A stretch of 64,000 nt of DNA from Dehalococcoidia bacterium (GCA_965197805.1 OZ240229.1:2596445-2660444), one strand, 5' to 3'; positions 36,403 to 49,104 are shown, counted from the stretch's first letter. A program made the numbers and translations. The notes: generated from the sequence alone by a model not told the origin.

Positions 36403-37199
36403 TGCAGGAACTGTTCAGTGAGCGTCGCAAGCTGTTCATTGGGGTAGTGCACCTGCTGCCGCTGCCTGGCTCGCCTCGCTGGCAGGGCGATTTCGACGCC
36501 TTGGTCACCCGCGCCCGGCAGGAAGCCCACACACTCGCGGAGGGCGGGGTCGACGGGATCATCGTAGAGAACTTTAATGACGCACCCTACGCGAAGGGTC
36601 GGGTGGAACCCCACACCATCGCATCCATGACGCTGGCCATCGCAGGCGTAATCGACACCGTCGACGTCCCGGTGGGCATCAACGTGCTACGAAACGACAT
36701 CAAGAGCGCCTTGGCGATGGCCATGGTCACCGGGGCGAGTTTCGTGCGAGCCAACACCCACTATGGCGTCATGGTGTCCGACGAGGGCATCATTGAGGGC
36801 GAGGCCTACGAGACCACACGCTACCGTCGCCATCACTGCCCCGACGTGAAGATTCTGGCCGACGTGCTGGTGAAGCACGCCACACCGTTGGGCGACCAAG
36901 ATATCGCCTTGGTGTCGGAAGACACTGTAAACCGAGGCTTGGCCGATGCCGTCATCGTCAGCGGCCCTCTTACCGGACTGGCTGCCGACGTAGACGAGGT
37001 CAGAAGAGTCAAGGAAGTTGTGCCCGATACCCCGGTCCTAGTCGGCAGCGGAGTCACTGTCGCCAACGCCTTCCAATTCCTGCAAGCCGCCGACGGAGCA
37101 ATAGTCGGCACCAGCCTCAAGGTCGACGGACAGGTGGGGAACCCTGTGGATTTGGGGCGAGTGCGGGAGTTGGCGGCGCTGTTTCGCGAGTTGGAGTGA
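36399..37199 (+). CDS. BtpA/SgcQ family protein
   Basis: GVVHLLPLPGSP, VENFNDAP, GINVLRND, DVLVKH, GSGV. Confidence 0.92.
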   Translation: MMQELFSERRKLFIGVVHLLPLPGSPRWQGDFDALVTRARQEAHTLAEGGVDGIIVENFNDAPYAKGRVEPHTIASMTLAIAGVIDTVDVPVGINVLRNDIKSALAMAMVTGASFVRANTHYGVMVSDEGIIEGEAYETTRYRRHHCPDVKILADVLVKHATPLGDQDIALVSEDTVNRGLADAVIVSGPLTGLAADVDEVRRVKEVVPDTPVLVGSGVTVANAFQFLQAADGAIVGTSLKVDGQVGNPVDLGRVRELAALFRELE

Positions 37200-37217
37200 A
37201 GGAGTTGCGCCAGCCCA

Positions 37218-37595
37218 CTAAAAGGGTTTGACGTGCTCCTCAAGCCACTCGCGCAACTGGTGAAAACGGAACGAGTTGGTCTCGAATAGGCGCATGAAGA
37301 AATCGTATGCCGCGCGGCTGTCGCAGTCGATATAGCTTCCATTGAGGCGCAGGAAGGCGTCGGTAGCACCCAAGGCTGTCCGCTTGTTGCCATCGACGAA
37401 GGGGTGGTTCATGGCCAAACTCTCCAACAGAGCGGCCGCTTCATCAACGAGTCCCTCGTAGTAGCCGAGTTGTGGGCGCATGATAGCCGACTCTAGCGCA
37501 CCCACGTCGCGAAGCCCCAAAGCACCTCCGAAATGGGAGAGCAGTTCGTCGTGCATGGTAACCACTTCCAAGAGTGTGGGGAACTCGTGGGTCAC
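37218..37595 (-). CDS. Doc/Fic toxin
   Basis: HPFVDGNKRTA Fic motif. Confidence 0.92.
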   Translation of the reverse strand: MTHEFPTLLEVVTMHDELLSHFGGALGLRDVGALESAIMRPQLGYYEGLVDEAAALLESLAMNHPFVDGNKRTALGATDAFLRLNGSYIDCDSRAAYDFFMRLFETNSFRFHQLREWLEEHVKPF

Positions 37596-39016: not shown

Positions 39017-40078
39017 CTACTGCACTCGCTCGGTTACGGCGCGAGTCGCCGACCAGAGGGGCATCCACGAGGAGTGGCGCCCTGCGCCGCCAGCCACAAC
39101 AATCAGGATGTCGTCGGGACGGGCAACCATTGGCACCAAGTAGTCGTCGGCGGCGTCTTCAATCCACTCAGGCCAAGTGCGCTCACCGTAGTGAGAGCGT
39201 CCCACTAGGTGTCTTTTCGGAATACGACAGTTCTGGAACAGGTACTCTTTGATGTCCTGCTTCGAGTAGCCGGAAGCGGCGATTTCCTGGGCATGCTCGG
39301 GGCACAGCACCAGAAGTACCTGACAATCGCGCCCTTGGATATAGTAGCTCACCACACCCAGCACTCTCATGCTGTCGGCAACCGTCTGCAGCGCCTCTTC
39401 ACCCGTCTCCACTGTCGTCTCGGTTATCTGGTGGAAGGCGCGGACTGCTGCCAGAGTCACCGTGCTGTCGTCGGAGGCGTAGCCGCGGTCCATGTGGAAG
39501 GGTTGCCAAGGACTCTGGGACTCGTTTTCGGCGGTGCAGAACGTGTACTTGGCGGGCTGGGCTTGGGTAGACTTCTCCATCTCGCCGGGGTGGGCCCCAC
39601 CGAGGTTGCGCACCACAAGGGCCAGCGAGCGCCCAAGGACGGCGTTGGCCTGATAGCCGGAGCCGAAGCAGGCTGTGTCGCCATTGAACCCAATGCGGCC
39701 GGCCACTGGCCCGTTGACGATGATCAGGGGCGCTGCCCCGGCAGTGGTGGCTGCCACACCACCGACGTTGTAGTCGGCGGTCAAGGCGGCGCGAACAGCA
39801 GCCAGCACCGCTGGCATGTGTTGAGGCATGGCGCCGGCCATGACCGCATTAGCGGCCACTTTCTCGACGGTGACAATGCCATCGCCCGGAGGCATCACGC
39901 CCAGAACCTCTTCGGCTGGCAGACCCACGGCATCCACCATTGCTGCCACCCGCTCTTCTGTGGGCGGCACAATGGGGAGTCCATCGCTCCATCCCCGCTC
40001 CAGGAACAGGCGGTTCACTTCGTCGAAAGCGGGGGCGACCTGTAAGCGGGTGGCCCTCACGCTAGACTCGCTGGTCAT
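39017..40078 (-). CDS. Uncharacterised protein usually partnered with UGSC-family proteins
   Basis: WSDGLPIVPPT, ANAVMAG, CPEHA, VAGG. Its start overlaps the UGSC stop (ATGA). Confidence 0.75.
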   Translation of the reverse strand: MTSESSVRATRLQVAPAFDEVNRLFLERGWSDGLPIVPPTEERVAAMVDAVGLPAEEVLGVMPPGDGIVTVEKVAANAVMAGAMPQHMPAVLAAVRAALTADYNVGGVAATTAGAAPLIIVNGPVAGRIGFNGDTACFGSGYQANAVLGRSLALVVRNLGGAHPGEMEKSTQAQPAKYTFCTAENESQSPWQPFHMDRGYASDDSTVTLAAVRAFHQITETTVETGEEALQTVADSMRVLGVVSYYIQGRDCQVLLVLCPEHAQEIAASGYSKQDIKEYLFQNCRIPKRHLVGRSHYGERTWPEWIEDAADDYLVPMVARPDDILIVVAGGAGRHSSWMPLWSATRAVTERVQ

Positions 40079-40614
40079 GCTGCACCTCGTGACAGGCCAG
40101 CCAGTATCTCCGGCAGGGCGGATTCGGCCGCTTCTTGTAGCTGGACTGCCGACTTGCTGGCCATGGGATGTTGCACCAATATCAGACGGTGCTGGGGCAT
40201 TGCCTTGGCTTGTGTGCGCAGCTTGGCCGCCCGCTCAAAGGCTGTGGTGACTAGGGTGACGGCGGGCCTGCCCCGCTTCTCTACTTCTACCGCGTCGTGG
40301 AGACCCCACGCTGTACAGGACCCTCAATCGGCGACCCCGTGCACCACAGCGTCACACTGGGCCAGCAGGTCGTCCATCTTGGACGGGTCCATGGGGATGC
40401 TGGGGTTGGCCTTGCGCACGATGACGGTGTCGACACCCTCCTCACCCAGCAGCACCTTCAGGTTGTCCATGAAACGGTCCGAGTTGTGTCGCGAGTTATC
40501 AATCAGTCCCACGGTGGCCCCTTGCAGTTGGGCCAAGCGCGGGTGTGGTCGTTCTTCGGGTATTGCGCCCTCGGCGGCAGGGTGGAGGATGGTCAGCATG
40601 TCATCGGGTGGCAA
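40075..40614 (-). CDS. UGSC-family selenoprotein (179 aa, UGA read as Sec at 40324-40326)
   Basis: The frame continues past the TGA as G-S-C-T-A-W-G-L-H-D to a stop at 40075. AGGAGG RBS precedes TTG 40614. A hairpin lies just 3' of the UGA. Confidence 0.85.
40296..40310 (-). promoter_or_regulatory. Candidate bacterial SECIS hairpin
   Basis: mRNA CGUGG-GGUCU-CCACG, loop starting with G, about 18 nt after the UGA. Confidence 0.55.
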
Positions 40615-41317
40615 TGGCGCCTCCTGTAGTTGTGTTAAGAGTCTTATCGTAAAGGGACTCCGGATGCCCTTCGATCATGTGAAGATCGAGTTCGCGCCCC
40701 AAGTGGTAGGTGAGACCATAGGCGACGGTAGCAATGTCCACTGGGCGGCCCAGAACTCGCTCCATGGAAGTAACGCCAGCGTCGGTGACCCCACAGGGGA
40801 TGATGTGCTGGAAGTAAGAGAGGTCAGGGGTGACATTAAGGGCGAGGCCATGATAGGCGACGCCATTGGTAATTTTCACTCCGATGGCCCCGATTTTCTC
40901 GTTCTCCACCCACACGCCAGTCCGTCCGTCTACCAGTCCCCCTTGGATATCGAACTGGCCAAGCGTGGCCAGCATCGCTCTTTCCAGAGCTCTAACGTAA
41001 CGCAGCGGCCCACCCCATGAGCGCAGGTTGACCACGGGATAGGCCACCAGTTGCCCAGGCCCATGATAGGTCACTTGTCCACCACGATCGGCCTCGTGAA
41101 GGGCGATGCCCCGTGCTTCCAGTTGCGAGTCATCCAGCAGGACGTGATCACGGTCGCCACGGCGACCCAGGGTGTAGACGTGGGGATGTTGCAGCAGGAG
41201 CAGTGTATTGGAGGATTGGCCTGCTTTGATGGCTTCCACCAGTTCAAGTTGAATGTCCCAAGCATCGGAGTATTCGACGATGCCAAATGAGATGACGTGG
41301 CAGGTTGGCTGGGCCAA
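40601..41317 (-). CDS. lipB: Octanoyltransferase LipB
   Basis: HPHVYTLGRR, DRGGQVTYHGPGQLVAYP, KIGAIG, HGLALN, IPCG. Start approximate (TTG). Confidence 0.92.
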   Translation of the reverse strand: MAQPTCHVISFGIVEYSDAWDIQLELVEAIKAGQSSNTLLLLQHPHVYTLGRRGDRDHVLLDDSQLEARGIALHEADRGGQVTYHGPGQLVAYPVVNLRSWGGPLRYVRALERAMLATLGQFDIQGGLVDGRTGVWVENEKIGAIGVKITNGVAYHGLALNVTPDLSYFQHIIPCGVTDAGVTSMERVLGRPVDIATVAYGLTYHLGRELDLHMIEGHPESLYDKTLNTTTGGAIATR

Positions 41318-41337
41318 TGGTCGATCACACGGCCGGT

Positions 41338-42699
41338 TCAGTAGATCGGCGTGTCGGGCCCCATGGCCTCGAGACGCTGCTTGACCGCCTGTAGGAAGGC
41401 GCTGGACTCGGAGCCGTCGGCAACGCGGTGGTCGAAAGAGAGGCACACGTTCATCATGGAGCGAATCGCAATAGCGTCGTTCATCACGACGGGCCGTTTC
41501 TGCACAGCCTCAATGGTTAGAATGCCCGCTTGGGGGTGGTTGATGATGGGCTGGGAAACGACGGAACCCAATGCGCCGGTGTTGTTCAGGGTGAAGGTAC
41601 CACCCTGAACGTCTTCCAAGGACAGCCTGCCTTGGCGGGCCCGCTCCGTAAGCTCATGAGCCGCTCGGGCTAGGCCGGCAATGCTGTGCCCGTCGGCGTT
41701 GTGGATGACCGGCACCACGAGCCCTCCCGGGGCAGCCACAGCGATGCCGATGTTGGTGCGCTTCTTTAGGATAATCTTGTCGCCACCCCAAGACGAGTTG
41801 AGGAGGGGGTTCTCTTTGAGCGCCTCTACCAAGGCTTTGATGGCAAAGGGGAGGTAGGTGAGGGCCACGCCTTCTCGTTGTCGGAAGTCATCTTTGATAC
41901 GGTCGCGGTAGGATGCCAAGAAAGTTAGGTCGACCTCAATCATGCTCCAAGCATGGGGTATCTCCGAGGCGCTGCGTGACATGTGTTCCGCGATGATGCG
42001 TCGCACTGCGGTGAGGGGCACGGCCTCCTCATCAGCCCCCGCAGTCATGGGTATGGGTGTGGGGGCCGGTGACGCTGGGGCAGCAGGGGCTGAAATCGGA
42101 GGTGCAGAGGCCGTGGCCACGGCCGCGCCACGGGTTTGTACAGCTTTCATTACGTCTTCGCGAGTCACCCTCCCGCCCATACCGCTGCCACTTAGCGTGT
42201 CTGGGTCGATGTTCTGCTCTCGCGCCAACCGACGCACCGCAGGGGAATATCGCCGGCGCGAGGCTGGTTCGTCCCGCTCGGTATCGGGTTGTGGTGCAGC
42301 GTCGGGAAGAGCAGTCTCCGGCCCAGCCATGATTCCACCAGTGGGACCCACGGGCCGGAGGTCTTTCGACAGGTAACCGATGGTGCTGGGGGGCGTCGGG
42401 GCGGAAGCTTGCACCGGCGGAGTGGCCGCGTGAGAGGATTGGACTACTGAGCCGTTCGTATCCGCTGTTTCCATCTCAGCGATGGGGGCGCCCATGGGAA
42501 CGGTGTCGCCCTCTTGGGCCAACAGAGAAGTAAGGACGCCATCATAAGGGGAGGGTACTTCCATGGTTACCTTGTCGGTGACCACTTCCACCAAGGGGTC
42601 GAAACGCCTCAGTTTGTCGCCCGGTTGGGCCAGCCACTTGCCGATAACACCTTCAACGACCGACTCGCCAACATGGGGCAGTTCGATCACTACAGCCAT
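41338..42699 (-). CDS. 2-oxoacid dehydrogenase E2 dihydrolipoamide acyltransferase
   Basis: Lipoyl TDKVTMEV, PSBD SPAVRRLA...GSGMGGRVT, catalytic DHRVADG. Confidence 0.95.
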   Translation of the reverse strand: MAVVIELPHVGESVVEGVIGKWLAQPGDKLRRFDPLVEVVTDKVTMEVPSPYDGVLTSLLAQEGDTVPMGAPIAEMETADTNGSVVQSSHAATPPVQASAPTPPSTIGYLSKDLRPVGPTGGIMAGPETALPDAAPQPDTERDEPASRRRYSPAVRRLAREQNIDPDTLSGSGMGGRVTREDVMKAVQTRGAAVATASAPPISAPAAPASPAPTPIPMTAGADEEAVPLTAVRRIIAEHMSRSASEIPHAWSMIEVDLTFLASYRDRIKDDFRQREGVALTYLPFAIKALVEALKENPLLNSSWGGDKIILKKRTNIGIAVAAPGGLVVPVIHNADGHSIAGLARAAHELTERARQGRLSLEDVQGGTFTLNNTGALGSVVSQPIINHPQAGILTIEAVQKRPVVMNDAIAIRSMMNVCLSFDHRVADGSESSAFLQAVKQRLEAMGPDTPIY

Positions 42700-42721
42700 G
42701 GTACCGCCCCTCTCTCCTCGC

Positions 42722-43705
42722 TCAGTAAGCAGCCAGCCGACGCAGAGCTTGGGCAACTTTGTCGGTGCTAGGCATATAGACCTCTTCCAAGGAGGAGGCA
42801 AAGGGCATGGCAGGCACGTCGGGGCCGCAGAGGCGGGTCACTGGGCCATCCAAGTGCTCGAAGGCTTGATCCGCTATGAGGGCAGCCACTTCCGCACCGA
42901 CCCCACCCGTCACGTTGTCCTCATGCACGATGAGGGCCTTGCCCGTCTTTTTCACCGAGTCCAATATCGTGTCGCGGTCCAAGGGGCTGAGGGTGCGCAG
43001 GTCCACAACTTCCACGCTTATGCCCTCTGCTGCGAGGAACTCCGCTGCCTCAAGGCAGTAATGAAGCACCAGCCCATAGGAGATAACGGTTATGTCGCCT
43101 CCGGCATGTTTGACGTCGGCGACGCCTATGGGTAGGCAGTACTCCCCGTCGGGTACCTCGCCGCGGACCAGACGGTAGGTCTTCTTGTGCTCCAAGAAAA
43201 CTACCGGGTTGTCGTCGCGGATGGCCGACTTGAGCAGACCCTTGGCATCGAAAGGAGTAGCCGGGGCAACGACCTTCAGACCGGGCGTATGAAAGAAGTA
43301 GGACTCCACATTCTGAGAGTGGTACAGACCTCCGCGTATGCCTCCGCCATAGGGCACACGCACCACCATCGGGGCCGAGATGGCACCATTGGTGCCGTAG
43401 CAGGCACGGGAAGCCTCGCCTATTAGCTGGTTGGCAGTGGGCCAGATGAAGTCGGCGAATTCCACTTCGGCGATGGGGCGCAGCCCACGGAAAGAGGCGC
43501 CTAGGGCGATACCCACTATGGAGGCTTCAGCCAAGGGTGTGTCGATGACCCGACCGGGGCCGAACTCGTCGAGAAAACCCTGCGTAGCTAGGAACACACC
43601 GCCACGCTGCCCGATGTCCTCTCCCATGATCAGCACCTTCGAGTCGCGCACGAGCTCTTCGTGCATCGCCTCCCGTACCGCCTCGATAACGCTCTTCACA
43701 GCCAT
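42722..43705 (-). CDS. 2-oxoacid dehydrogenase E1 beta (branched-chain type likely)
   Basis: GEDIG, DTPLAE, GGLYHSQ, VVDLRTL. Confidence 0.93.
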   Translation of the reverse strand: MAVKSVIEAVREAMHEELVRDSKVLIMGEDIGQRGGVFLATQGFLDEFGPGRVIDTPLAEASIVGIALGASFRGLRPIAEVEFADFIWPTANQLIGEASRACYGTNGAISAPMVVRVPYGGGIRGGLYHSQNVESYFFHTPGLKVVAPATPFDAKGLLKSAIRDDNPVVFLEHKKTYRLVRGEVPDGEYCLPIGVADVKHAGGDITVISYGLVLHYCLEAAEFLAAEGISVEVVDLRTLSPLDRDTILDSVKKTGKALIVHEDNVTGGVGAEVAALIADQAFEHLDGPVTRLCGPDVPAMPFASSLEEVYMPSTDKVAQALRRLAAY

Positions 43706-43713
43706 GATATATC

Positions 43714-44730
43714 TCAGCCTGCGTACAGGTGGTGGTAGAAGGTTGAGGGATCGGGGAGGGGAGCGTCCTCGGCCAAGGCAGTAGCCCGGTCCACTTGGAC
43801 TCGGGCCTCAGAGCGCATCATTTCGTCATCCGACTCCGTCAGATGGCCGGTCTCCAGCAGGTAGTTGCGGAGTGCGTCGATGGGGTCGCGGGTGCGGGCG
43901 GCCTCCAGTTCTTCCGTAGAGCGGTAGCGCCGGTCATCGTCATCGGTTGTATGCGGCATGAGGCGCTCAACCTGCATCTCCAACAGGACGGGCCCCTCGC
44001 TCCGGGCATAGGCTATAGCATCGCAGGTCGCCCGATAGCACTCGAACAAGTCAAGGCCATCCACCTCATGGCCGGGGAAGCCATAGCTCTGCGCCCTCTG
44101 TGTCACCCCAGGAACAGACATCTGTAACCTGAGGGGGACCGATATGGCGTACCGATTGTTTTCGCAGATGAATATCACGGGCAGGCGGTGCACTGCGGCG
44201 AAATTCATGGCCTCATGGCACTCGCCTTGGCTGGAGCCTCCATCGCCCAAGTAGGCCAGCACAACAGTGTCCTCACCCAAAGCCCTGCACCCCAGCGCAT
44301 AGCCGACCGCTTGGGTAAGGTTAGCTGCCACCACGTTGGAGGTCTGAATCACACGGTTATGGGGCGAGGCTCCCTGTAGGGGAAACTGGCGTCCGCCACT
44401 ATAGGGGTCTCCTGCTTTCCCCATGAAGGAGAGCATGGCCTCGTCGACGGATATTCCTGCAGTCAGCTTGATGGCCAAGTCGCGGTAGTAGGGGAAGAGG
44501 AAGAAATCGCCGTCGTCCTGAGCAGCGAGAAGACTACCCAGTTGGGCCGCCTCGTGGCCTTGGCATGAAGCAGCGATGGGCACCTTGCCCTGCCGATTCA
44601 ACGCCCAGATACGCTCGTCGAATGTACGTACCAGTACCATCTGCGAGTAGACCTGCAACGCCTTGGGGTCGCTAAGGACATGAGAGCCGTGGAGGCCTTC
44701 GTTGCCGTGGGCCTTTTCCGCCTGGGCCAT
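43714..44730 (-). CDS. 2-oxoacid dehydrogenase E1 alpha (branched-chain type likely)
   Basis: SCQGHEA, PYYRD, TPP motif GDGGSSQG...ENNRYAIS. Confidence 0.93.
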   Translation of the reverse strand: MAQAEKAHGNEGLHGSHVLSDPKALQVYSQMVLVRTFDERIWALNRQGKVPIAASCQGHEAAQLGSLLAAQDDGDFFLFPYYRDLAIKLTAGISVDEAMLSFMGKAGDPYSGGRQFPLQGASPHNRVIQTSNVVAANLTQAVGYALGCRALGEDTVVLAYLGDGGSSQGECHEAMNFAAVHRLPVIFICENNRYAISVPLRLQMSVPGVTQRAQSYGFPGHEVDGLDLFECYRATCDAIAYARSEGPVLLEMQVERLMPHTTDDDDRRYRSTEELEAARTRDPIDALRNYLLETGHLTESDDEMMRSEARVQVDRATALAEDAPLPDPSTFYHHLYAG

Positions 44731-44758: not shown

Positions 44759-46951
44759 CTAGGAAGGTTCTTGACGTTGCGAGCTGGCTACCAGCAGGTC
44801 GCCCCGGTCACCCCAGCGCTTAAAGAAGCGTTTGAAGTTCTTGAAGCTAAGCTCGTTCCGTTGGGCCTCGTCCAAGGCAGCCCACACCCGGTGCTCATGT
44901 CGCACTATGGGCAGGTCGTCCGCAGCAAAGATGCGGTGTCCCAAGTTCTTCATCTGGAAACTGAAATCGAGGTCGAGGTTGCGATAGAAGCGGAAGCACT
45001 CGCGCATCAGGCCCACCTCATTGACAAGGGAACGCCGGAAGCCTTGGCAATAGGCCTGCATGGCGTCGGACTCGCCCGATGTGACCTCGTCGTGGAAGTG
45101 ATGTATGTCGTCGGTGCATACACCCCACGGCCCGACCATCGAGATTCGCTCATCATCCAACCAGCGGTCGACGGGCGTCAGGATGTCGCCGACTACCTCG
45201 ACTGAGGGATCCAGGAACAGTACGGTGCGCCCACGACACTGCATCAGGCCAATGTTCTTGGCTGCGCCCTCACCCAGCACATGGTCGGCGTGGACTACGT
45301 TGACCCGTGAATCGCTGGCCCGGAGTTCTTCCAGCCATTCCGAGGTACCGTCAGTGGAGCCGTTGTCGACCACGACAAGCTCGGCGTTGTGGCCCTCAGC
45401 CCACTTCAGGGCGCTGCGGGTGACCCGCTGCACATCGTCCTTATAGTCAGACACCACCGAGACCATGGAAAAGTCCAGCGTCGGAGGCTCGCCCAAGTAG
45501 GAGAGCACCTCCTTGGGCGAGGAAATCGTGGCGAACTGTCCCTGCATCCGCTCCAGCGGGGTCTTGGGGCGCACTGATGCGCCGTCGGCTTGGTCTTGGA
45601 CCACGTAGCCGTGGGATGAGATGTGCTCGCGCAGGGCATCCGCCTCGTCATAGGAATGGCTGCTGCGGAAGCTGCTCCGCCGTTCTACATGTGCGCCCAC
45701 CTGAGAAGGGACCTCGTGAGTGGCGGCGGCCTGGTCCAAGCCCAGCCCCAGAAGCTCATCGAACTCCCGCAGCAGCGCAGCCTTGGCCGCGTCGGGCAGC
45801 GGGGACTGGGACATGTTCCACACGCTCGCCAAGGCACTGGGAAGGTCGAGGTCGTTCTCCACCTTCTCCCAGAATTTCGTCCGCCACTCCTCGGCCTCGG
45901 TTGGCATCTCGGCAAGGTCAGAGGCTTGGCGCCAGACAGCCATGCGAGCTTGAAGACCGGTCAAGGCCCGCTGAGCAGCCCTCAGCGTGGAGAAGGTGAA
46001 GTTCATCCGATTGCGGTAGCGCACCGTGAGGCAGAGGTAGCGGAAGGACAATGGGTCGAAGTCCCGCGCCACCAGATCATCGAGAATGAACACGTTGCCC
46101 GAGGACTTGGCCATCTTGACGCCGTCCGCGAGCAGATGCTGGCCGTGGACCCAGTAGCGCACGTAGGGGACCCCAAAAGCAGCCTCGCTCTGGGCTATCT
46201 CGTCCTCGTGATGAGGGAAGATGTTGTCCACGCCGCCGGTATGGATATCGAGCTGCTGCCCCATGTACTTGGTAGACATGGCCGAGCATTCGATGTGCCA
46301 GCCAGGGAAACCTTCTCCCCAAGGGCTGTCCCACTTCATCTCACGTCCGGGCTCCGCCAGCTTCCAGAGCGTGAAATCACGCGGGTCGCGCTTCAGCGGG
46401 TCGGCCTCACTGCGAACACCCTCCATCAACCCTGCCTGCTGATTGCCCGAAAGGGCCCCGTAGGCTTCGAATTTGGCGACATCAAAGTAGATGTTGCCAC
46501 CCACCAAGTACGCATAGCCTTTGGCCATCAACTGTTCGACCAAGGCCACCATCTCAGCCACATGCTCAGTGGCCCAAGGATAGATGTGAGCCGGAAGAAT
46601 GTTGAGCCTGGCTTCGTCGTCGTAGAAAGCTTGGGCGTAGAACTGGGCAATCTCCTGAGGAGACTTACCTTCTTCCAAGGCCGCCAGGATAACGCGGTCG
46701 CCACCCTCTTCCAGCATCTCTTGGCGCATGTGGCCCACGTCGGTTATGTTCTTGACGTGAGTAACCTCATAGCCTCGATGCATGAGAGCGCGACGTATCC
46801 AGTCGGCCATCAGATAACTTCGGAGGTTGCCTATATGGGCGTAACGGTAGACAGTAGGACCGCAGGTGTACATTTTGGCGACACCGGGCTCTAGAGTCTG
46901 CACCTCCTCCGCCCGACGCGTCATAGTGTTGTGTAAGCTAAGCACCATCAC
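44759..46951 (-). CDS. cysS: Cysteinyl-tRNA synthetase fused to a C-terminal GT2 glycosyltransferase domain
   Basis: CGPTVY, HIGN, WHIECSAM, FPHHEDE, KMAKS, anticodon helix ADALR. Then VVVDNGSTDGT, AAKNIGL, LFLD, DLDFS. Confidence 0.9.
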   Translation of the reverse strand: MMVLSLHNTMTRRAEEVQTLEPGVAKMYTCGPTVYRYAHIGNLRSYLMADWIRRALMHRGYEVTHVKNITDVGHMRQEMLEEGGDRVILAALEEGKSPQEIAQFYAQAFYDDEARLNILPAHIYPWATEHVAEMVALVEQLMAKGYAYLVGGNIYFDVAKFEAYGALSGNQQAGLMEGVRSEADPLKRDPRDFTLWKLAEPGREMKWDSPWGEGFPGWHIECSAMSTKYMGQQLDIHTGGVDNIFPHHEDEIAQSEAAFGVPYVRYWVHGQHLLADGVKMAKSSGNVFILDDLVARDFDPLSFRYLCLTVRYRNRMNFTFSTLRAAQRALTGLQARMAVWRQASDLAEMPTEAEEWRTKFWEKVENDLDLPSALASVWNMSQSPLPDAAKAALLREFDELLGLGLDQAAATHEVPSQVGAHVERRSSFRSSHSYDEADALREHISSHGYVVQDQADGASVRPKTPLERMQGQFATISSPKEVLSYLGEPPTLDFSMVSVVSDYKDDVQRVTRSALKWAEGHNAELVVVDNGSTDGTSEWLEELRASDSRVNVVHADHVLGEGAAKNIGLMQCRGRTVLFLDPSVEVVGDILTPVDRWLDDERISMVGPWGVCTDDIHHFHDEVTSGESDAMQAYCQGFRRSLVNEVGLMRECFRFYRNLDLDFSFQMKNLGHRIFAADDLPIVRHEHRVWAALDEAQRNELSFKNFKRFFKRWGDRGDLLVASSQRQEPS

Positions 46952-47867: not shown

Positions 47868-48563
47868 ATGTTTGCGTCGCCGAAGCGTAGTCGTGCCCGC
47901 TCACAGCCCAGATTAGATAACCCATTCCGATGCACGTCTTTTCGCCACCTCCGTTTGACAGACCTTTCGCCAGCAAGGTGCCAACAAATTGTGATCAAAG
48001 ACCTCCTTCTCCATTTCGAGCTGGCATCTACCGTAGTCTTGATCGCGCTGGCTTGTGGCGACAACGATGAGGGCCGTGACGCGACCCCCTTTCGCGTAGG
48101 GGTGATGGAGTCCCTTACGGGCTTGGGCGAGACCTATGGTTCGGTGGCCAATCGGGCAAAGCAGATGGCGGCGGACGAAATTAACGCGGCGGGCGGCATC
48201 AACGGGCGCAGGTTGGAACTCGTCGTGGAAGATTCCAAGTGCAGCGGCATGGACGCAATTGCCGCCTACGAGAAGCTGACCGAGGTGGATGGCATCACGC
48301 TCCCTTGGCATCTGGGATCAGCCTACGACAACGTCTACATCACTGCCGAGTGCCTCAGACAGACCAACGACGACCAGGACGCGGAGGGTTTCCGCGACTA
48401 TCTGTACGCCATCACCTGGAGTGGCGCTATAGGTGACGGCTACAGTTTCGACGCCAACGGGGAGGTCGTCGGTCTCTCCCGTGTGGTCGTCGAGGTGTTG
48501 CCAGCAGCCGAGCGCACCGCAGACAGAAAATACAGGGTGTTGGGGCCGGCCCCCGACCTCTAG
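47868..48563 (+). pseudogene. Branched-chain amino-acid-type ABC substrate-binding protein with large internal deletion
   Basis: Lipobox LACG, EINAAGGINGRRLELVVEDSKC, then an abrupt jump to the C-terminal AYDNVY. Only about 190 aa remain. Confidence 0.7.
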
Positions 48564-48638: not shown

Positions 48639-49104
48639 AGGAGCCGGCCAGGCTGGGTGGCCGCCGCCCTCGTCAGCGAGGGGGGAGGAAAGTCCGGGCT
48701 CCACCGGGCAGGGTGCTGGGTAACGCCCAGGCTCCCATTCTTCGAGCAATCGAAGGCGGGAGACGGATAGTGCCACAGAAACATACCGCCTACGGCCCCC
48801 TTGGGGTCAGGTAAGGTTGAAAGGGTGAGGTAAGAGCTCACCGCGTCCTCAGTGATGGGGATGGCAGGCAAACCCCACCTGGAGCAAGGCCGAATAGAGG
48901 GACTATGGGCGCCCGGCCCGTCCCCGGGTTGGCTGCTGGAGTCTAGCGGTAACGCTGTCCCACAGGGACGCCGGCCACCACCATATGGTCCGGCAGACCT
49001 AGATAGATGGTCACCACCTTCGAGCGTCCAGGAGGAAGTCCCTGAGATGTAAACTGGCTCGCACGAGGGGAACAGAACCCGGCTTACAGGCCTGCCTGGC
49101 TCCT
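48639..49104 (+). ncRNA. rnpB: RNase P RNA, type A
   Basis: GAGGAAAGTCCGGGCTCC, AGTGCCACAGAAA, GAGCAAGGCC, AGATAGATG, ACAGAACCCGGCTTA. Terminal P1 pairing AGGAGCC with GGCTCCT. Confidence 0.96.

Follow-up and report, generated by a model that had tools for sequence, protein, structure and literature searches.

The stretch of DNA analysed here, referred to as the window, comprises 64,000 nucleotides of the genome of a Dehalococcoidia bacterium (GCA_965197805.1, OZ240229.1:2596445-2660444). Positions 44759-46951 on its minus strand form a single open reading frame (ORF) of 730 amino acids (aa), which starts with GTG and carries ATG as codon 2. This ORF encodes a complete cysteinyl-tRNA synthetase (CysRS), a conserved 28-aa linker, and a glycosyltransferase (GT) domain of the GT-A/GT2 type, in this order. 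The protein is labelled in databases simply as 'cysteine--tRNA ligase', and no published description of a CysRS-glycosyltransferase fusion was found in the literature searched. The fusion is shown to be an accessory paralogue; the housekeeping CysRS is encoded by a separate canonical gene.

The initial annotation of this locus proposed that a full CysRS continues in frame into a GT-A fold, and both parts of this proposal were borne out. The first part of the ORF contains C30 in CGPT, HIGN at residues 39-42, WHIEC at 218-222, HHEDE at 247-251, and KMAKS at 279-283, all of which align with the CysRS of E. coli and Borrelia, and the second part contains VVVDNGSTDGT and LFLDPS. In Pfam, tRNA-synt_1e matches residues 18-327 with 329 bits, CysS_C matches residues 413-461 with 19.9 bits, slightly below its cut-off of 23, and Glycos_transf_2 (PF00535) matches residues 505-606 with 57.3 bits against a cut-off of 23.3. 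The frame has no stop between the domains in the source genome or in four congeners. The full-length AlphaFold model of the fusion has a predicted local distance difference test (pLDDT) score of 78 and a predicted template-modelling score (pTM) of 0.75. The C-terminal part, composed of the anticodon-binding domain (ABD), linker, and GT domain, reached a pLDDT of 89 and a pTM of 0.79 when modelled alone with an alignment. No signal peptide or membrane segment is evident in the fusion sequence.

With 423 bits, the CysRS half passes the cysS equivalog model of NCBIfam (TIGR00435, cut-off 340) over model positions 1-463 of 466, and it fails the MshC equivalog model (TIGR03447) with 235 bits against 485.1. 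The same preference was found in the PDB, where MshC matches scored about 186-202 bits versus 280-403 for CysRS matches. The AlphaFold model superposes on CysRS structures, including the tRNA complex 1U0B (target-normalised template-modelling score, TM, 0.76), and MshC is ranked lower. C30, C222, H247, and E251 of the zinc and cysteine site, together with W218, align to the corresponding residues of E. coli CysRS. The closest CysRS structures are Borrelia burgdorferi 3SP1, 8QHP, and Elizabethkingia 6UJD, which share with the fusion the HIGN variant of HIGH; an inserted 'NITDxGH...gD' segment (NITDVGHMRQEMLEEGGDR in the fusion) is common to 3SP1 and 6UJD. This Borrelia/Elizabethkingia-like form, with HIGN and the inserted segment, is called type 2 in this report. 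Residues 1-462 of the fusion correspond to a full type-2 CysRS, with the same contact residues as in the mechanistic reference E. coli 1U0B. The fusion differs from these enzymes in its additional C-terminal residues (about 270, linker and GT-A domain) and in being, within its order, a dispensable second copy beside a canonical type-1 CysRS. Because families f31, f42, and f45 have no full-length CysRS other than the type-2 form, and because it is nearest to the Borrelia and Elizabethkingia CysRS structures, it can be argued that the type-2 design would be a working synthetase. A mixed form occurs in family f53, whose CysRS genes (L201-L203, L210) combine the type-2 HIGN/HVGN motif with the type-1 NITDIDDK motif and have no insertion.

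The source genome is a single 3.68-Mb contig, and the search for a second, stand-alone cysS that the initial annotation had recommended gave a clear answer. A canonical gene is located at C1:999555-1000907, adjoining ispF and ispD, and encodes HVGH, NFTDIDDK, and KMSKS. It scored 500 bits in the genome profile search, compared with 424.6 bits for the fusion. The order was sampled with 61 genomes from more than 55 families, a very diverse set, and 38 of them (about 60%) contain the fusion. A canonical cysS was found alongside the fusion in 35 of these 38, with the canonical gene at about 470-530 bits and the weaker fusion at about 370-425 bits. Two of the three exceptions are 81% and 68% complete genomes, and in the third, the canonical cysS is fragmented at contig ends. 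Among the 23 genomes without a module match, 21 have exactly one canonical cysS, one (G420) gave no match, and one (G412) has one plus a 311-aa CysRS fragment. The coexistence of a canonical stand-alone cysS in the source genome and in 35 of 38 fusion genomes is the reason why the fusion is considered accessory and not housekeeping. Uninterrupted fusion frames of 729-972 aa occur in 35 of the 38 genomes. G439 and G445 each have one in-frame stop within the module match, and G458 has only a 441-aa frame, with a CysRS fragment at the contig end.

The fusion is also widespread outside the order. In a sample of 401 genomes of the phylum, the module was present in 95, and at least two cysS matches were found in every fusion genome among 77 sampled across the phylum. 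Many of these fusion genomes have a third cysS match of about 400-420 aa, which is MshC-like and covers model positions 1-375 only. This third paralogue, lacking an ABD, was observed in many Chloroflexota outside the order (e.g., G034:C2:1176387-1177520 and G233:C1:2575836-2576951). Searches with the GT region returned more than 900 proteins at 90% clustering, and nearly all among the matches listed are fusions of about 725 aa. The close relatives all derive from metagenome-assembled genomes of uncultured Dehalococcoidia or Chloroflexota, with 206 loci in the species-level genome collection.

The retention of the anticodon domain, which had also been claimed, was confirmed by alignment to the E. 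coli CysRS structures 1LI5 and 1U0B. In E. coli CysRS, the anticodon is contacted by Arg427, Trp432, Asp436, and Arg439, based on 1U0B (PMC13449415). Their counterparts in the fusion are R429, Y434, D438, and R441. In a comparison of 39 fused and 27 stand-alone modules, R425, R429, D438, and D453 do not vary, position 441 is occupied by R or K, and position 434 by an aromatic residue throughout; the contact counterparts are therefore kept in the 27 stand-alone modules as well. The ABD is followed by the linker, which has the consensus RPKT..E...ERW..VSSS.EV.S.LD.P, with E467 and S477 invariant in an alignment of 37 family proteins. It is predicted to be folded and not floppy (pLDDT 72-93 in both models), and it accompanies the GT domain in the stand-alone modules.

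The GT domain contains VVVDNGSTDGT (D529), D556-H557, G560..N566, and D581-P-S583-V-E585 at the DxD position, followed by HHFH (617-620), FRFYRNLDLD with D660 and D662, RHEHRVW (684-690), and a basic and aromatic C-terminal helix, SFKNFKRFFKRW. A degenerate DxD motif had been noted earlier. The second Asp of a canonical motif is Ser here, and 'DPS' lies inside a family-conserved D-x-S-x-E motif, in which D581 is at least 90% conserved and S583 and E585 are invariant in the 37-protein alignment. In the larger comparison, D581 is kept in 39 of 39 fused and 22 of 27 stand-alone modules (with Glu in three more), and E585 in 38 of 39 and 25 of 27, respectively. D660, R640, N566, and N705 are invariant in all of them. 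Alignment by eye suggests that D660 may be the equivalent of the catalytic base of the GT2 'ED' motif. The catalytic signature DDHDSEDHH is almost invariant in fused forms across the phylum. Together, these conserved catalytic-type residues are best explained by a GT-A domain that would be catalytically competent.

Structure comparison supports the GT-A assignment. Foldseek returned ppGalNAc-T2/T3, WrtF, and the Leptospira GT 6P61 at E-values of about 1e-11 to 1e-12, and matched GT27 and GT2 structures with a probability of 1.00 and TM of 0.5-0.8. In a sequence-profile search against the PDB, the GT region matched ordinary GT2 enzymes only. Pfam and Foldseek agree that the fusion partner is GT-A and not of the GNAT, Fem, or MprF type. 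What it has in common with generic GT2/GT27 enzymes (ppGalNAc-T2/T3, the WrtF fucosyltransferase, 6P61, GalT1, and K4 chondroitin polymerase) is the fold and the N-terminal nucleotide-binding half, whereas identity to these is 14-20% and D-x-S-x-E stands in place of DxD or DxH. HHFH, FRFYRNLDLD, RHEHRxW, SKRNFxRFxxxW, and the obligatory N-terminal linker are features of the fusion family that are not found in generic GT2/GT27 enzymes.

Selection on the ORF was estimated as the ratio of nonsynonymous to synonymous substitution rates (dN/dS) in five genomes of the genus, where dS is about 1 and near saturation. The GT domain, at 0.02-0.05, is as low as the CysRS core, at 0.035-0.07, and the linker has a value of about 0.1. 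Purifying selection is shown to act on every part of the ORF, most strongly on the GT domain and CysRS core and least on the ABD. Clearly, the GT domain is not in decay. The initial annotation had named a stop between the domains, loss of GT catalytic residues, and neutral evolution as contrary outcomes; an open frame, retained residues, and low dN/dS were found instead.

The ABD and GT domain also occur together without the synthetase. Residues 413-730 were searched against the phylum in six frames, and nearly all of the 107 matches start at query positions 2-17, i.e., at the ABD. Open frames of about 640-930 aa, in most cases confirmed fusions, account for approximately half of the matches, and frames of 300-500 aa for the other half. 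Elsewhere in the phylum, ABD+GT exists as a separate protein of 300-450 aa. These stand-alone modules are real genes in single-contig genomes, and the gene upstream of P0224/L007 is unrelated. A HIGN-type CysRS is present in every genome with a stand-alone module that was checked. In the module tree, the fused forms are dispersed, with short branches and a nearly fixed catalytic signature. The stand-alone forms constitute two long-branched derived clades, one with f42 and L007 and the other with f41, f45, f53, and f31, which implies at least two splits. The ABD was retained in both, though a break between ABD and GT looks equally possible. These results show that ABD and GT form an evolutionary unit that also exists alone. 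In L051 (9056-11325, G029:C24), the start of a complete type-2 cysS, which has its own ABD, overlaps the stand-alone ABD+GT gene by 19 bp, the reverse of the order in the fusion. In L007 (744-2805; GCA_016196905.1, JACPWV010000076), a FemAB-family gene is found 28 bp upstream of a stand-alone module in which D556-H557 and D581 have been lost.

The GT segment alone was searched with phmmer against 1.84 billion representatives, which gave about 75 family members at E <= 1e-30. About 60 of these carry the ABD or a whole CysRS, and about 15 proteins of 237-272 aa among the matches listed are GT-only. The GT-only proteins are rarer, more degenerate, nested in the stand-alone clades, and mostly without the DNGS motif; the nucleotide-binding residues D529 and D556-H557 disappear step by step among the stand-alone and GT-only derivatives. 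The travelling of the GT with an ABD is a strong tendency, not a rule. A GT-only ancestor was rejected, as these proteins are nested inside the long-branched stand-alone clades, and this direction is tentative under midpoint rooting only. Several apparent exceptions were also discarded as frameshift artefacts. P0122, P0194, and P0187, considered as natural stops between the domains, come from one long-read assembly with a CysRS fragment in an overlapping frame directly upstream, and P0223 comes from a 1x contig in which every gene is fragmented. Similarly, L004-L006 (ENA ERZ26167216) and L008 (ERZ25766727) are 1-15x long-read contigs with a frameshift-split fusion and neighbour genes. Such contigs thus create false 'stand-alone GT' database entries.

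The features of the locus are collected in Table 1. The fusion heads a same-strand run composed of E1-alpha, E1-beta, E2, LipB, an ORF of no assigned family, and an amidohydrolase, and the E1-E2 block follows the fusion both in the window and in the near relative L004. The neighbours were surveyed at 23 loci (21 of the order and two with split fusions). Pyruvate kinase (pyk) lies directly upstream in 10, a zinc-ribbon gene recurs in 13, a recombinase-like ORF in 11, lipB within 4.5 kb downstream in 7, metG in 6, and a polyprenyl synthase in 6. A functional link to lipB or the 2-oxoacid dehydrogenase was rejected, since together with pyk, metG, and the polyprenyl synthase this looks like housekeeping synteny, and the downstream E1-E2-LipB genes are probably not functionally tied to the fusion. 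Upstream of the fusion are a divergent CT398-type zinc-ribbon gene and then rnpB. The presence of rnpB explains why the sequence at that position is GC-rich and strand-skewed, with spurious ORFs. The 231-aa ORF between these two genes corresponds in L004 to two short Peripla_BP_6 fragments (113 and 192 aa), and it may be a decayed gene for a substrate-binding protein.

Table 1. Features of the fusion ORF and its surroundings in the window
Feature	Position	Strand	Basis or remark
CysRS body, residues 1-404: Rossmann catalytic domain and helical bundle	45740..46951	-	Motifs, profile scores, structure alignment
Short variable spacer and C-terminal alpha/beta anticodon-binding domain (ABD), residues 405-462	45566..45739	-	CysS_C 19.9 bits, alignment to 1LI5/1U0B
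Conserved linker, residues 463-490	45482..45565	-	37-protein alignment, model pLDDT
GT-A / GT2-like domain, residues 491-722	44786..45481	-	PF00535, PDB profile matches, Foldseek, conservation
Variable C-terminal tail, residues 723-730, and stop codon	44759..44785	-	pLDDT below 50
2-oxoacid dehydrogenase E1-alpha, E1-beta, E2 (lipoyl domain), then octanoyltransferase LipB	40604..44730	-	28-bp gap after the fusion
353-aa ORF between lipB and the Amidohydro_2 gene	39017-40078	-	No Pfam match at E <= 1e-4
186-aa ORF	36833-37393	-	No Pfam match at E <= 1e-4
231-aa ORF between the zinc-ribbon gene and rnpB	47868-48563	+
RNase P RNA class A gene rnpB	48645-49102	+	249 bits, full model; about 1.7 kb upstream of the fusion

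Envelope or glycan genes did not recur beside the fusion or the stand-alone modules at the loci surveyed. No universal neighbour was found among 20 stand-alone modules, which show family-level synteny only: pepF and a ManC-like gene in f42, and an MshC-like gene 6-26 kb away in f31. FemAB was considered as a partner and rejected, as it adjoins the module in one of 21 stand-alone loci (L007), is lacking in the other 20, and is absent from the source genome. Partners known from thiol biosynthesis were also surveyed. PIG-L/LmbE occurs in 58 of 61 genomes of the order irrespective of the fusion, and the copies in the source genome are more than 460 kb from the fusion; among the matches listed, PIG-L/LmbE directly adjoins the fusion only in G416. 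Its co-occurrence was dismissed as a clue, being ubiquitous and uninformative. BshC was found in none of 39 genomes of the order, and no MshC-like gene was found in the order. No mshB-type (PIG-L/LmbE) or bacillithiol partner tracks the fusion; mshA and mshD were not searched. The source genome has one tRNA-Cys(GCA) gene, c[3384544,3384620], and one strong match was found per genome in the order. ARAGORN also listed in the source genome (C1) a tRNA-Ile with the anticodon UAU, four tRNA-Pro(UGG), and a tRNA-Sec at c[1412572,1412666].

Several known systems share part of this design. MshC (3C8Z, 8HFM), the Cys:GlcN-Ins ligase, is like the fusion a CysRS-derived paralogue beside the housekeeping CysRS, in a pathway that involves cysteine and a glycoside; unlike the fusion, it has no ABD and no fused GT. 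LysX of mycobacteria (LysRS-MprF) is a precedent in logic, as an accessory aminoacyl-tRNA synthetase is fused to a second enzyme that consumes its product locally (mentioned in PMC5388404). The partner in LysX, MprF, is a known aminoacyl-tRNA-dependent transferase on a membrane anchor, whereas the partner in the fusion is a soluble GT-A domain, a fold not known to use aminoacyl-tRNA. QTGAL is an enzyme of the GT-A/GT2 type. QTGAL (B3GNTL1) and QTMAN (GTDC1) demonstrate in animals that glycosyltransferases can act on a base of the tRNA anticodon, the acceptor being a nucleoside of the anticodon loop (PMC11755703), and this idea is common to the reading favoured below. Both are eukaryotic enzymes that modify Q34 of tRNA-Tyr and tRNA-Asp and are not fused to a synthetase or ABD, and their likeness to the GT of the fusion is at the level of the generic fold. 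tRNA-Cys(GCA) is not known to be a queuosine tRNA.

Together with these data, it is tentatively proposed, as a plausible rather than a probable reading, that the accessory CysRS holds tRNA-Cys while the GT domain transfers a sugar to the tRNA or to something on it. In this mechanism, the CysRS half would still bind and charge the single tRNA-Cys of the cell. The ABD would grip the GCA anticodon, and the bound tRNA-Cys would receive a sugar from a nucleotide sugar through the adjacent GT. Since the ABD, linker, and GT are predicted as one compact unit, the sugar would most likely be placed in or near the anticodon arm; the cysteine carried on the tRNA would be a less likely target. The outcome would be a modified sub-pool of Cys-tRNA-Cys. 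It is possible, but rather doubtful, that the ABD+GT module is the first bacterial tRNA-directed glycosyltransferase, with a borrowed CysRS anticodon reader that selects tRNA-Cys and a sugar placed on the tRNA or its cysteine. Glycosylation acting on tRNA was a secondary suggestion of the initial annotation; it is the idea most favoured by the evidence, though still an inference.

A number of observations weigh against this proposal. tRNA as the acceptor is supported indirectly, through the linkage of the GT to the ABD. Glycosylated nucleosides are not known from bacterial tRNA-Cys. Within the order, the identity of tRNA-Cys is 90-100% both in genomes that have the fusion and in those that lack it, and G435, which has no fusion, has an identical tRNA. 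Therefore, no feature of the tRNA varies with the enzyme, and a dedicated isoacceptor does not exist; a second tRNA-Cys or a co-varying tRNA feature was accordingly rejected as a candidate. With a pI of about 5-6 and a net charge of -6 to -14, the GT domain is acidic overall, unlike the usual extended RNA-binding surface. The Ser in place of the second Asp at the DxD position makes D581-x-S583-x-E585 a non-canonical metal motif. The ABD segment evolves faster than the other parts, with a dN/dS of 0.15-0.39 in the five genomes. Finally, at least one GT-only form (P0288) is a genuine gene with no space for an ABD, and genuine GT-only relatives mean that the wider GT family can function without a tRNA handle.

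Part of this evidence would suit a second CysRS with a passenger enzyme, which is a serious though unlikely candidate. The synthetase would be a back-up or condition-specific form, the GT would act on a non-tRNA acceptor (envelope glycan, lipid carrier, protein, or metabolite), and the fusion would merely co-regulate the two, with the ABD kept in split forms by an accident of the break position. The resemblance of the GT to ordinary GT2/GT27 enzymes that act on peptides or glycans is in line with this explanation, as are its acidic character, the GT-only relatives, the lack of co-variation in tRNA-Cys, and the fact that the need for the ABD is backed by only two independent splits. However, members of the GT family are almost always joined to CysRS parts or located next to them (about 60 of the approximately 75 representatives), and a HIGN-type CysRS occurs wherever checked. 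The anticodon contacts are kept in stand-alone modules, which have no synthetase function to maintain them, and neither recurring envelope or glycan neighbours nor an evident signal peptide or membrane segment points to such an acceptor. The GT-like domain could instead be a non-catalytic sensor or regulator, in which binding of a nucleotide sugar tunes CysRS activity or tRNA-Cys availability. The non-canonical metal motif and the progressive loss of D529 and D556-H557 in stand-alone and GT-only derivatives would agree with this, but it is very unlikely given the near-invariant catalytic-type residue set of the fused forms, a GT dN/dS as low as that of the synthetase core, and the presence of D660 in 66 of 66 modules.

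The two other explanations make use of the cysteine itself. The initial annotation had put forward a channelled route to a cysteinyl-glycoside such as a new low-molecular-weight thiol, in which a glycoside produced by the GT would receive Cys from the CysRS-like half via Cys-AMP, as in MshC. MshC does derive from CysRS, the known glycoside-thiol ligases (BshC and an MshC-like enzyme) are missing from the order, PIG-L/LmbE deacetylases are plentiful, with one adjoining the fusion in G416, and the patchy distribution fits an accessory redox cofactor. Nevertheless, this route was not supported and is now considered quite unlikely. The CysRS half scores well above the cysS cut-off and far below that of MshC, and it keeps an ABD with conserved anticodon contacts, which MshC lost and a small-molecule ligase would not need. 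Stand-alone ABD+GT modules exist without the ligase half, other Chloroflexota have a separate MshC-like gene in addition to the fusion, and LmbE does not track the fusion, whose neighbours are housekeeping genes (pyk, metG, lipB, and the zinc-ribbon gene). A LysX-like arrangement, in which the GT glycosylates the S or N of tRNA-bound cysteine to give glycosyl-Cys-tRNA for non-ribosomal or specialised ribosomal use, is regarded as very unlikely. The fusion is indeed an accessory synthetase paralogue with a second catalytic domain, and S-glycosylation of cysteine is known from GT2 enzymes of the SunS and ThuS type. The L007 module beside a FemAB-family aminoacyl-tRNA transferase can be counted on the same side, and 8QHP, one of the closest structural matches, is described as a homodimer, which could permit action in trans. 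However, the predicted compact unit has the GT after the ABD, which would place it at the end of the tRNA opposite the aminoacyl group. The FemAB association is confined to that one locus, and no conserved downstream consumer gene was found at the 23 loci.

Paralogues and fusions of aminoacyl-tRNA synthetases have repeatedly exposed new biochemistry, with MshC, GluQRS, the tRNA-dependent transferases, and LysX among the examples. In the present case, hundreds of uncultured Chloroflexota species have a full synthetase permanently fused to an enzyme of sugar transfer, and this result sharpens the question of what role a glycosyltransferase has when tethered to a tRNA-Cys anticodon reader. If the acceptor is tRNA or tRNA-bound cysteine, it would represent a new type of bacterial RNA or aminoacyl modification. 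A tRNA-directed module would constitute a new class among the enzymes that modify tRNA, as well as a new kind of synthetase fusion, and as a natural tRNA-specific targeting module it would be of interest for engineering. If the acceptor is otherwise, the fusion would still mark a connection of cysteine charging to glycosylation in a lineage that is abundant worldwide and poorly understood.

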